64,000 bases of DNA from Octopus sinensis (Eukaryota): assembly GCF_006345805.1 (NCBI RefSeq), contig NC_043012.1, forward strand, positions 9,796,001 through 9,860,000. The letters run 5' to 3'. Every line of letters starts with the position of its first letter. Positions within the stretch are counted from its first letter, which is position 1. Shown one piece after another: positions 8,752 through 45,287 of this stretch. The position numbers and the translations under genes were made by a program. The notes beneath the pieces are model-generated. The model ran no database searches. It saw only the letters and a list, made by a program, of their open reading frames with translations, and was not told where the DNA came from.

Positions 8752-9305
8752 CACAACTTCATATCCTGTTGCGTATCTTGATTATATATATAGTTCCAAT
8801 TTACAGAAGAGAAAAGACGAAGACGGCTGAAAGAACAACAAGCGTGTGTATTAGTTTAACGCCCGCGAAGGATGAAAATGTCTTTGAAGTTTCAAACCTA
8901 TGCTATTCGACAGAAAGCATTGAGAGAGAAAGAAAAAAACGGAGAACAATGTGTAGGGATTAACGGTTTAACATTATATAAATAAATAAATTAATAAATT
9001 AACATATATATATATATATATATATATATATATATATATATATCTATATATATATATCTATATCTATATCTATATATATATATATATATATATCTATATA
9101 TATATATATATATTATATATATATATATTATATATATATATATATATATATAGTGACGTATTTTTGCCATTTCATATGGCTAACCCCTAAGGGTGGATGC
9201 TACTGTAGTTTTTAGCCCCAGGAGGACACACTCCTCCAGCTGGCCATAGACAACACTATCTGTGTCCTGTCAGTATTTGCAAAGGGAAGTCATCCTTCCC
9301 GTCTT

Positions 9306-9375
9306 CAACTTATGATACACACGGACTCAAGTTTCGAGGTATTGACCTCTCGTCAGCGTGTGACAATCATAGTTG
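9306..9375 (-). ncRNA. Type I hammerhead ribozyme, copy 1 of tandem unit
   Basis: Reverse complement: CACACG-CUGACGA-GAGG-ucaaua-CCUC-GAAAC-uuga-GUC-CGUGUG; complete core and extended stem I (CAACU AUGAU/AUCAU AGUUG). Confidence 0.9.
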
Positions 9376-9659
9376 TCGCCGAGAATTAGATTTCCTTCAC
9401 AAATACTTATACTTTTTCCAGCGTCCACTGTCGCTGATATTGAAAAAGTGAAATCAAACAATGATAAATATCAAAGTGAGTTATATACAGTAGCGGTAAC
9501 ACATCGTGACGTATTTTTGCCATTTCAATATGGCTAACCCCTAAGGGTGGATGCTACTGTAGTTTTTAGCCCCAGGAGGACACACTCCTCCAGCTGGCCA
9601 TAGACAACACTATCTGTGTCCTGTCAGTATTTGCAAAGGGAAGTCATCCTTCCCGTCTT

Positions 9660-9729
9660 CAACTTATGATACACACGGACTCGAGTTTCGAGGTATTGAC
9701 CTCTCGTCAGCGTGTGACAATCATAGTTG
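9660..9729 (-). ncRNA. Type I hammerhead ribozyme, copy 2 of tandem unit
   Basis: Reverse complement: CACACG-CUGACGA-GAGG-ucaaua-CCUC-GAAAC-UCGA-GUC-CGUGUG; palindromic ACUCGAGU stem III. Confidence 0.92.
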
Positions 9730-10035
9730 TCGCCGAGAATTAGATTTCCTTCACAAATACTTATACTTTTTCCAGCGTCCACTGTCGCTGATATTGAAAA
9801 AGTGAAATCAAACATTGATAAATATCAAGTGAGTTATATACCGCTACTGTATATAACTCACTTTGATATATATATATATATATATATATATATATATATA
9901 TAATATTATTAGAGACAAAACCACTATTTGCAAAACAAACAAGGAAAGACTTAATCAATACATAAAATTTTAATAAATAGTCAAAAAAACCGCCACTACA
10001 ATCGTTTCTTGCCTTATATATATATATATATATAT

Positions 10036-10338
10036 GGAGGCGCAATAGTGGTTCGGGCAGCGGACTCGCGGTCGTAGGATAGTGGTTTCGATTCCCATAC
10101 CGGGCGTTGTGAGTGTTTTTTGAACGAAAACACCTAATGCTCCACGAGGCTCCGGCAGGGGGTGGTGGCGATCCCTGCTGTACTCTTTCGCCACAACTTT
10201 CTCTCACTCTTTCTTCTGTTGGCCTGCTCGCTTAGGCAGCGGGGTGGCGTCATTTGAAGGCTAAAACAATGCGAAGCGCATTGTGACCAGCGATGTGTAA
10301 CAACATCTGATAGCCTGGTCGGTCACGTGATCACGTGA
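10036..10338 (+). mobile_element. tRNA-derived SINE
   Basis: Same head as the 6722 family; tail gcctggtcggtcacgtgatcacg; copies at 29388-29681 and 62434-62743. Confidence 0.8.
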
Positions 10339-42532: not shown

Positions 42533-42608
42533 AATGTACTGAATAAGTCACGGACACTTGAATTATGCAAGTAATTCTTTTGTTAAGACCGAAACCGAGG
42601 TATGCATT
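42533..42608 (+). ncRNA. Hammerhead copy with core mutation (CUGAAUA), probably inactive
   Basis: Inverted copy of 41757-41832 with G8 changed to U. Confidence 0.6.
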
Positions 42609-42900
42609 TAATTCTGTTTTTTATTTAATTTTTCATATGTCCTGCCCGCCAAATCTGGTTCTGGTGTTCGCTGAATTCTTCCTCTAGAGAATTTCCCTTG
42701 TAGTTTGATCGTTGATGATCTATTTCTAGCATTCTGGCCGGCTACCTAGCAGGCCAGCCCTGCCAATATACACATATATTTGAATTTTCTCTGACTCCTC
42801 AGATCTTTTGAATGCTGGACTACTGGTTTTAAATTGATATTAAAATTAATATTAATTTATCTCCCTCAATTTTTAAATATATATATATATATATATATAT

Positions 42901-43116
42901 ATAATGTAAAGTATAGAAGCCATCTTATCATGGCTAACCACATTGGGGAGGGGGTGTTACTGTAGCTTTATAGCCCCAAGAGATCTTCGTCTCTAGCTGG
43001 CTTTAGATACAATATGTCAGCTAGAGACGAAGATCTCTTGGGGCTATAAAGCTACAGTAACACCCCCTCCCCAATGTGGTTAGCCATGATAAGATGGCTT
43101 CTATACTTTACATTAT
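42901..43116. repeat. Inverted repeat (99-bp arms, 18-nt spacer) related to the 9153 unit family
   Basis: Arms 42901-42999 and 43018-43116; shares gccat..atggctaacc..gggtg..tactgtag..tagcccca..agctgg with the start of the 9153 unit. Confidence 0.85.
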
Positions 43117-43270
43117 CGAGCGATTACTGTTTCAATATCATTCTGAGATTTAATTATGCTATATATATATATATATATATATATATCTATACATATACAT
43201 ATAAGCATTTTTTGTGTAATAAGATAAAAAAACAAGGCTGTGTAGATATTAGAACATTTATAGATAGAAG

Positions 43271-43323
43271 GTCTTACAGCTGTTTTTAGGATATCTATTA
43301 ATAATATCCCTTCATCGGAGACG
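43271..43323 (-). ncRNA. Degenerate hammerhead-like motif (Penelope-type)
   Basis: Reverse complement: GUCU-CCGAUGA-A-GGGAUAU...AUAUCCU-aAAAAC-AGCU-GUA-AGAC; palindromic stem III; core substitutions. Confidence 0.5.
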
Positions 43324-45287
43324 GTGTGAGAGGATAGTTAAGCCATAGTTAGTTTAGATGTGATACAAAATAGAGTGAGGTGGAGGAAAGAAAATAGATG
43401 CAAGATATGTATGGGTATTGAAGTTGTAAATCCGTTTTATAGGCATAATGGTATACATGCAATATTCCAATATCCTATGAGTAATGTCCAAAAGTCCAAC
43501 AGAGCTTAATATGATTTCTTCCAAATATAGAGCTTATAAGCAATGTAAGATTCCCTTAGGAGTGAGATCCAGCAGATTTTTAAACTTGGTTATTCCCAGT
43601 AGGGAATTTATATACAGTGTTGTAGAGTCAAAGGTTTGTATTTAAAGTGACCTAAAAATAGGGAGTGTATTAGTAAGGTCAAATCGAAAACAAGAAGTGA
43701 GGAGTGAAGAAAGAGAGAAAAAAAAGGAAGAGAAAAATGAGAAGAGAAAGAAACAATGAAAGAGAAAAGAGAGAGAAGAAGGAGAAGAAAGTAAGAAGAA
43801 GATTAGTAAAAAATAACAAAATAATAAAATAAATAAAAACCTTGAAGAGAAGAATAAAAGGAATAAAGAAAAAAGAAAAAAGGAAATGAAGATATAGATC
43901 AGTCAGTGGTCAGTGGAGATAATTTGAAAGTAATTCACCCTTTATATTCCCACTCCTACTATATTGGCTATTCCCTTGGATAACATCGGTGGTGTAGAGA
44001 GGGCTGGTTGGTATGCAGGAGCGACTACTGATCTTCCATACATAACCTTGCACAGAGGGGAACCTTCTTAGTGCAATCCCATGGTCATTTATGAGGTAAG
44101 GGTCTCTTTAATCTTTACCCATAACAGTAATAACTAAACAGTGTATTGTGCGTTTTATTGTGTTTATGTCATGCACAGTATTTCCAGGAACTTGATACAA
44201 ACTGTTTGTAGTACAAAGATGATTGTGAACTACTCACTTACGGCATGATTCACTGATGTGAAAGACACTAGCAGAACACCTAAGTTTAGAGATGCCAAAG
44301 CGAAGTGTTTGATACTATTATAATATTTGTGTGACTGTGGTTAGAATATTGTCGAGATCCAAAGTCTAAAGATAGCCTATTCATTCAAAATGTGTATTGT
44401 GTATATGTGTGCGTTGATGAGTGCGTATATATATATATATATATATTATATATATATATATTATAGAAATTATATGTATATATATATATATATATATACG
44501 TGTGAGTACGTTTTACACGTATACATACTAGAATAGGGACAGATTTTGTGCTACAAATCTTATAAGATTTCAGACAGAAGTTGTATTGTATACATACAAT
44601 TTCTTTGCATACAAACAAATATGAGCTGCATTGAAGTATTTATATAAATATCGGGGAATAATTATGTGATACACTCTGTGAATACATATAACTAATATGG
44701 AACACAAGCGTGGAATTGGTACATAGGATACTTTTTAACTCATATAGAAATTTGTAAGAAATTTGTTTGTAAAAAGACGAAAAAGATTCCATATGTATGG
44801 AATAATAAATATATGAAGGCATTTATCTTTTTACACTTCTGAACCAATACACACACATTCATATATATGCATGTATGTATGTGTATGTATATATATATAT
44901 ATATATATATATATATATATATATAGTAAAAGTAATTAAGATTCAAGTGAGTTCTGTTGAATTCACATGAATGAGGTACTTAACATAGATGCACCAGAAA
45001 TCTATATGGTATTAACCATAAGATAATGCGGAGTGATTATAAGCAAGAAAAAAGCAACAAAAATGGATCAATATTTCGGTACAATTGTTTCGTATATATA
45101 TATATATATATATATATATATATATATATATACCCATATATATATACATATATATTGGTATATATGTTAATATATATTCATATACATACATAGATGCATA
45201 GGCACTACATACATTTCTATACTTATATCTACCTATTCATATTATATTTATATATGTATATGTGTGTACCAATGTGTTTGTATGTGT

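Follow-up and report, generated by a model that had tools for sequence, protein, structure and literature searches.

Do the short, inverted repeats that lie among (TA)n microsatellites in the genome of Octopus sinensis share one way of inserting, and if so, whose enzymes carry it out? The question arose from a window of 64,000 nucleotides (NCBI RefSeq assembly GCF_006345805.1, contig NC_043012.1, positions 9,796,001 to 9,860,000, forward strand; window coordinates count from its first letter). Here a sequence-only reading had picked out three TA-flanked stretches and a similar fold-back, described each stretch as a segment followed by an inverted copy of part of itself, and attributed them to hammerhead ribozyme RNAs served by one Penelope-type reverse transcriptase (RT)/endonuclease with a (TA)n preference. 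In this 2.72-Gb, microsatellite-rich genome, we found that the four stretches represent four young repeat families, designated A, B, C and D. We consider it likely that these are protein-free tandem repeats with hammerhead motifs that carry the Penelope footprint and were inserted in trans by Penelope-type proteins with RT and GIY-YIG domains; several such enzymes are more likely than one. The footprint of two arms and two ends is mostly known from Penelope-like elements, and what is new is its occurrence in these retrozyme families.

Four repeat families and their insertions in the window

Family A has a 354-bp unit and copies that are 98-99% alike, family B a 546-bp unit, and family C a 357-bp unit with copies 94-97% alike. 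The doubled units of C and A are 65% identical over 717 aligned bases, in agreement with the earlier view that the element at 42901 is a relative of that at 9153. All three families consist of tandem non-coding units, with arms that run on for up to 3-4 units. Family D is AT-rich and at least 450 bp in size; its longest copy measures ~450 bp, and it is tandem in one locus only. There is no long open reading frame (ORF) at the window places of A-D, and no RT or GIY-YIG ORF was found in the four families. The window insertions are built from arms leading to one of two fixed ends, E1 and E2, as follows.

9004-9152, no strand: (TA)n tract bordering the family A insertion on its left (target flank)
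9153-9841, minus strand: long arm of family A, 1.95 tandem 354-bp units; RNA sense is minus, with the 3' end at 9153 being fixed end E1
9324-9356, minus strand: minimal type I hammerhead motif, A unit 1 (Rfam 29.5 bits, E 0.0034)
9678-9710, minus strand: minimal type I hammerhead motif, A unit 2 (Rfam 32.2 bits, E 0.00042); core complete, loop III palindromic
9839-9873, plus strand: short inverted arm of family A to fixed end E2, 35 bp; junction overlap 3 nt, final bases common with the TA tract
9866-9902, no strand: (TA)n tract bordering the A insertion on its right
25498-25548, no strand: (TA)n tract bordering the family D insertion on its left
25549-25756, minus strand: family D arm to fixed end E2 (25549), with a one-sided tail at ~25549-25627; stops short of the family's hammerhead
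25765-25911, plus strand: inverted arm of family D to E1, followed by TA at 25912-25937
41349-41609, no strand: TA-rich tract bordering the family B insertion on its left
41610-42303, minus strand: arm of family B, made of one 546-bp unit and a further 148 bp; begins ~20 nt inside the usual end E1
41763-41826, minus strand: type I hammerhead motif of B with a long stem II, from the motif scan only; its minimum-energy fold is not a hammerhead
42300-42876, plus strand: inverted arm of family B to E2; junction overlap 4 nt
42877-42902, no strand: (TA)n tract common to the B and C insertions
42901-43015, minus strand: family C arm to E1; stops short of the hammerhead
43018-43160, plus strand: inverted arm of family C to E2, 45-nt tail included, followed by TA at 43160-43203

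Much of the anatomy proposed from the sequence alone was borne out. The stretch given as 41610-42880 is indeed a forward arm (41610-42303) and an inverted arm (from 42300 to 42876) between TA tracts. That at 9153-9868 is TA-flanked and carries an inverted piece, but its real extent is 9153-9873 and the piece is only 35 bp long. Two arms at TA were likewise found for the stretch placed at 42901-43116, which runs 44 bases further, to 43160, and the fold-back at 25630-25920 shows the same anatomy with a real extent of 25549-25911, its start lying 80 bases further left. The relation of the two arms is, however, less simple than a partial copy: the inverted arm begins at a second fixed site and often includes sequence absent from the forward arm.

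A motif scan detected a type I hammerhead motif in every one of the four families, longer copies elsewhere included. In the window it placed minus-strand hammerheads at 9356-9324, 9710-9678 and 41826-41763, and the description as hammerhead elements fits the stretches at 9153 and 41610 but not the window copies at 42901 (C) and 25549 (D), which contain none; in these families the motif sits in longer copies elsewhere. At the gathering score Rfam returned no match in the window: the two A motifs (32.2 and 29.5 bits) fall below the Hammerhead_1 gathering score of 34, and the B motif has no Hammerhead_1 match among the matches listed (150 of 177). The motif of A unit 1 has a stem I of 6 bp, a stem II of 5 bp and a very short stem III, and its palindromic loop is broken; across the family, the core is complete and the loop palindromic in 135/142 motif rows, overlapping loci included. 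The hammerhead copy in the inverted arm of B (~42539-42602) has one core base changed. In D, a complete core with a 10-bp stem II is present in the longest copy (locus L184), ~260-350 nt from E2; the motif is complete in 1/30 loci, the majority of which are too short. Another hammerhead, noticed first in L184, was rejected as D's own, since it belongs to a nested fold-back element. This element (reverse strand, 1958-2310) represents a fifth fold-back family, with mirrored hammerhead-like motifs and a one-sided ~42-nt tail before TA.

Paired inverted arms and their landing places

Genome searches returned 549-1404 candidates (A 1404, B 1255), of which the best-scoring 40 per search were examined. 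Arms were mapped on unit multimers, and after removal of duplicates and of copies cut by a locus edge, 30 loci per search gave 24 and 23 insertions of A (45 merged), 22 and 17 of B (32 merged) and 29 of C. Head-to-head two-arm copies accounted for 22/45 insertions of A, 20/32 of B and 19/29 of C, versus 0/30 for a control, the short interspersed nuclear element (SINE) at window 10035-10349; the excess of inversions over SINEs, which had been put forward as a check, was thus found. Two-arm copies also made up 10/23 (A) and 9/17 (B) insertions when the query was taken from mid-unit and thus did not select for ends (Fisher p 6e-5 and 2e-5 versus the SINE). For D a script counted 14/30, a nested element among them, and in two further copies later insertions split the arms; the share of two-arm copies in D is 13-15/30.

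RNA 3' ends fall at two sites in each family: unit positions 1 and 303-316 in A, 515-532 and 406-426 in B, 355-6 and 304-316 in C, and 1 (selected by the query) and 75-89 in D. The distance between E1 and E2 is ~45-50 nt in A and C, ~80 nt in D and ~105 nt in B. Two-arm copies overwhelmingly combine one end of each kind, E1 with E2, in 20/22 copies of A, 18/20 of B and 13/19 of C; the remainder have a non-canonical end, save a single E1+E1 copy. Where both ends are canonical, the pairing is E1+E2 in 51/52 copies of A, B and C (p 2e-14 versus 50:50). The place of the join varies between copies. An overlap of 1-5 nt marks 37 of the 61 joins and a longer one 5 (alignment ends inflate overlaps slightly); 6 joins are blunt, 13 contain inserted bases, and 7/61 are near-mirror. 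No poly-A tail was present at the ends of the copies examined. In the end region of A and C, a stem across E1 is kept in 8 distinct sequences, with two-sided changes at 3/7 stem pairs; overall, 6/18 pairs changed on both sides (1/500 shuffles), the structure having been derived from these same sequences.

As a background for the flanks we used 80 grid-placed 10-kb stretches (800 kb), in which (TA)n covers 2.8% of the DNA and 2.8-3.9% of positions pass the TA rule (3.9% by the rule used for ends). With mid-unit queries, 29/33 3' ends of A and 26/26 of B met TA, and three of the four families lie mostly inside TA microsatellites. For C the figure was 20/48, the other ends being AT-rich, which is lower than for A (p=2.5e-5). 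The truncated 5' ends of one-arm copies passed less often (A 6/13, B 2/8). Since the SINE also has TA, at 15/30 3' ends and on either side in 19/30 copies, TA flanking is not specific to hammerhead elements; compared with the SINE, TA at 3' ends was higher in A (p 0.002) and B (p 1e-5) but not in C (p 0.49). As a signature, (TA)n accordingly stands far above the 3-4% background without setting these elements apart from the SINE. What distinguishes them is the inversion with its paired ends, TA being a common landing place in this genome.

The control SINE family is tRNA-like (window 10035-10349, 29370-29681 and 62434-62755) and itself sits in (TA)n/(TG)n microsatellites; its 5' side is often bordered by (TG)n. 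Short fold-backs are frequent in the grid DNA, where 19 were scored, 10 of them at TA. The same 800 kb contained 6 hammerhead motifs versus 0 in a shuffle; a self-search found 0 inverted arms for these, with the nearest downstream TA tract 67-520 nt away, the numbers being too small and the element boundaries too uncertain to give a frequency.

Penelope-like enzymes and the competing explanations

A search for GIY-YIG domains gave 147 matches from 5029 candidates and revealed two intact young families encoding RT and GIY-YIG, one of 775 aa (RVT_1 + GIY-YIG) and one of 781 aa; loci L135 and L141 belong to separate families with this ORF. The closest named relatives of the Penelope protein are from molluscs. 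Both families have a Cx4Cx2C linker and CCHH-type residues, features that the accessible part of PMC8557442 assigns to the Neptune/Nematis type and not to Hydra. Both also carry a variant hammerhead in their 3' region and have their termini in (TA)n. In the 775-aa family two end sites lie 28 nt apart, used by 14 and 16 of 30 copies, with 30/30 at TA; in the 781-aa family most copies end at the first site and four of those listed at the second, and one two-arm copy is E1+E2 (L152). A third autonomous family has a tail of ~42 nt, so that at least three autonomous families each have their own tail. The proposed link to Penelope thus gains support from the inverted arms, the two fixed ends and the presence of intact RT + GIY-YIG elements with the same footprint.

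Several further features of these elements were recorded. The hammerhead core of the 781-aa family is of the U3/A8 type (L192:1850-1890), nearly all sampled copies of the 775-aa family have a U4-to-C core change (3' regions in L283-L312), and at L135:1174-4877 an upstream 479-aa frame without a Pfam match overlaps the RT frame of the 781-aa family. Three apparent junctions with our repeats were rejected. A D-like stretch follows the TA tract of the 781-aa element at one genomic place only (L135/L191/L192) and is missing from the other 781-aa ends listed, so D is not its 3' end; D-like DNA in L127 is a separate insertion; and the ORF-bearing element that B seemed to terminate in L059 has its own end ~440 nt away.

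That one single Penelope-type enzyme mobilises all four families, as had been proposed, we regard as unlikely. The common anatomy of the four families speaks for it, as do the homology of A and C, with the same ends and end structure, and the presence of two young intact families with a TA preference. Against this, B and D show no clear sequence likeness to A and C; tail lengths differ (~45-50, 80 and 105 nt, and 28 to ~42 nt in three autonomous families); ends of C lie at TA far less often than those of A (20/48 versus 29/33), though C is somewhat older; and at least three autonomous families have tails of their own. One common enzyme is unproven because no intact Penelope family examined shares termini with A-C.

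The repeats might instead be only truncated 3' stubs, the pseudo-long terminal repeats (pLTRs), of autonomous Penelope-like elements. This is improbable for the repeats as a whole, but a serious, if lesser, possibility for D, which is tandem at one locus only and reaches ~450 bp in its longest copy. Such stubs do exist: one fold-back in the random sample (L336) is the end of an ORF-bearing family. However, A, B and C continue into further units of their own, up to 3-4, no arm was observed to run into a Penelope ORF, and the one shared extension of C is an inserted long interspersed nuclear element (LINE), not a Penelope ORF.

Very little probability remains for the view that the inversions are chimeric long reads, assembly artefacts or TA-hairpin fold-backs unrelated to transposition. 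The (TA)n tracts are self-complementary and cover 2.8% of the sampled DNA, and the window B junction was unbridged among the contig pieces listed from four public runs, which proves nothing either way. Yet the flanks are unmirrored and the arms end at two different fixed sites, which argues against chimeric reads; in addition, only 7/61 joins are near-mirror, the SINE has no inversions (0/30) despite often lying at TA, and, as we read the joints, five of inversion type from other B and C copies are present in contigs of three public runs at depths of 19-192. Equally hard to sustain are L1-style twin priming on one linear RNA, which the short join overlaps would fit but which is largely refuted by a second arm starting at a fixed and not a random site, is at odds with the lack of poly-A tails at the ends, and is not indicated by the 17/61 arm stops within 20 nt of the other arm's start versus ~12 by chance, and, for D, a miniature inverted-repeat transposable element (MITE), which D resembled as a fixed palindrome in a first, biased search and which was rejected given its variable join, one-sided 80-nt tail and many one-arm copies.

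Insertion in trans by Penelope-type proteins could proceed as follows. A multimeric or circular RNA would be bound by the protein, probably as a dimer, and both strands of a TA-rich target would be nicked. Each nick would prime complementary DNA (cDNA) synthesis at one start site of the two. The resulting cDNAs would stop at variable points and be joined 5'-to-5' by microhomology repair; extension of only one nick would yield a one-arm copy.

Several observations weigh against insertion of hammerhead repeats by such proteins. An autonomous element with A-, B- or C-like termini, which the sequence-only reading had suggested seeking, was not found among 94 endonuclease matches in ~2 Mb of fetched DNA, a small part of the thousands of candidates (5029). 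The tails of B (~105 nt) and D (~80 nt) exceed the published 30-40 bp. In the hammerhead of C, U replaces C3 in 19/22 motif rows, and a U3 opposite G8 would weaken hammerhead cleavage; for B the minimum-energy fold is not a hammerhead. Sampling the best-scoring 40 of 549-1404 candidates favours young and long copies, and a few loci resemble local duplicates of a single insertion (e.g. L197/L198, L008/L010, L271/L279). Moreover, start-site use in vitro was alike on the top and bottom strands in the accessible text of PMC11167929, and the strict pairing of E1 with E2 is therefore unexplained by that work.

A LINE in family C, and comparison with known systems

The extension of family C is a 5.6-kb LINE with a 1134-aa frame containing endonuclease, RT and zf-RVT domains (L187:2288-8331; also L185, L186 and L188), which we take to belong to the Tx1 clade from its domain layout and general resemblance. 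The copy in L187 has an 18-bp target duplication. We picked 20 further LINE 3' ends (L393-L412) from 40 listed, leaving out places already seen, and found that 17/20 abut C at unit position 238, in the same orientation and with the target site ~30 nt before C's hammerhead core. Of the remaining three, one continues into a tandem's next LINE, another adjoins a U2 gene at its first bases and the last lies elsewhere. Separate insertions are suggested by the adjoining C copies, which diverge by up to ~7%, set against a likeness of 99-100% among the best LINE ends. A distinct element of 1.6 kb, carrying gag-like frames and seen once (L189:6654-8280), lies 4 bases from the same C site with a 13-bp duplication.

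The U2 gene at the LINE copy (L407; L414:823-6251) scores 183.6 bits in Rfam, and that LINE copy begins with 15 bases of C's target site. By eye, a similar 10-base word stands 61 bases before the first U2 base and before the matching base of C, and is weaker in A. This one U2 locus hints that U2 and C may share a promoter of the small nuclear RNA (snRNA) type, and transcription of the repeats might start at such a promoter in the preceding unit. Taking these observations together, we tentatively offer a joint reading that is more doubtful than insertion in trans itself: retrozyme units would carry a U-snRNA-type promoter, a Penelope dimer with one subunit per start site would force E1+E2, and the Tx1-type LINE would target the retrozyme transcription start to borrow its promoter, with the same target rule occasionally hitting the first bases of U2 genes. 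Our literature searches found no publication on a LINE that targets a hammerhead repeat.

Other features of the window surround these insertions. The end of a further repeat family lies at 9903-10014, between the TA tract of the A insertion and the SINE; this family also forms TA-flanked fold-backs in L341, L137 and L138. Directly after the TA of the C insertion, 43204-43330 is a piece of another dispersed repeat with 79-92% matches in several loci. A 284-bp palindrome (17998-18281, 97.5%) has no TA flanks and no match in the loci fetched, and two older fold-backs occupy 30537-30669 and 36453-36803, the second made of common SINE-like pieces. A 355-codon intronless open frame at 55601-56668 (plus strand) resembles a ZIP-family metal transporter. 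We take 23188-24588, 38546-39421 and 51888-53632, which adjoin long (AAT)n tracts, to be fragments of RTE-like LINEs, and 15264-15806 to be a helicase-like (Helitron-type) fragment, from their translations.

Among known systems, LINEs that target other transposons are already on record, the accessible part of PMC4494074 giving the target-specific Tx1-clade members Tx1L in Tx1D, Tx1-Mar in Mariner-N4 and Keno in U2. Like these, the LINE described here combines an apurinic/apyrimidinic (APE) endonuclease with RT and zf-RVT domains, inserts into another mobile element at a single site and builds tandem arrays; it differs in targeting a hammerhead repeat (family C) and in having one copy at a U2 gene's first bases.

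Animal retrozymes of the non-LTR kind (LTR, long terminal repeat) have been proposed as non-autonomous partners of Penelope-like elements (accessible text of PMC7229834 and of bioRxiv 10.64898/2026.07.22.740005). Families A-D resemble them in having non-coding units of a few hundred bases, a type I hammerhead and coexisting Penelope-like elements (PMC7229834). In contrast, inverted arms, fixed ends and microsatellite targets are not described in the accessible text of these two sources, and 'inverted' and 'microsatellite' occur 0 times in PMC7229834. For their retrozymes circular RNA and cleavage have been shown, whereas A-D are described here from sequence; Xenopus retrozymes have pLTR homology (bioRxiv 10.64898/2026.07.22.740005), whereas none was found for A-C among the 94 endonuclease matches; and the 546-bp unit of B exceeds the 150-450 bp quoted for retrozymes in the accessible text. 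Retrozyme mobility has so far been argued from co-occurrence and pLTR similarity, and the insertion footprint is more direct evidence for Penelope-type proteins. We found no report of this footprint in retrozymes in open-access full texts, supplements excluded; since it is already in print for Penelope-like elements, the surprise is moderate.

The printed footprint is an inverted 5'-truncated copy with a one-sided tail of 30-40 bp (PMC8557442 and PMC3846280, as far as their accessible text goes). With the Neptune/Nematis-type elements of these papers A-D share partial tandems, the inverted 5'-truncated copy, the one-sided tail, a hammerhead near the end and a (TA)n bias; they differ in encoding no protein, and B and D have tails of two to three times the length described. 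The two intact families described here share with this type the CX2-5CxxC linker and CCHH-type residues, as judged from the residues themselves.

Finally, the Poseidon element of the green anole offers the closest biochemical parallel to the insertion step proposed here. In the accessible text of PMC11167929, both strands of an AT-rich target are nicked and extended in vitro, the protein is a predicted dimer, and two internal RT start sites correspond to the genomic ends. Its choice of start site was independent of the strand in vitro, whereas the two-arm copies of the octopus are E1+E2 in 51/52 cases. This one-of-each pairing is a sharp constraint, open to testing, on a step of insertion that the in vitro study did not settle, and the young intact enzymes and short template RNAs available from one genome make such a test practical.

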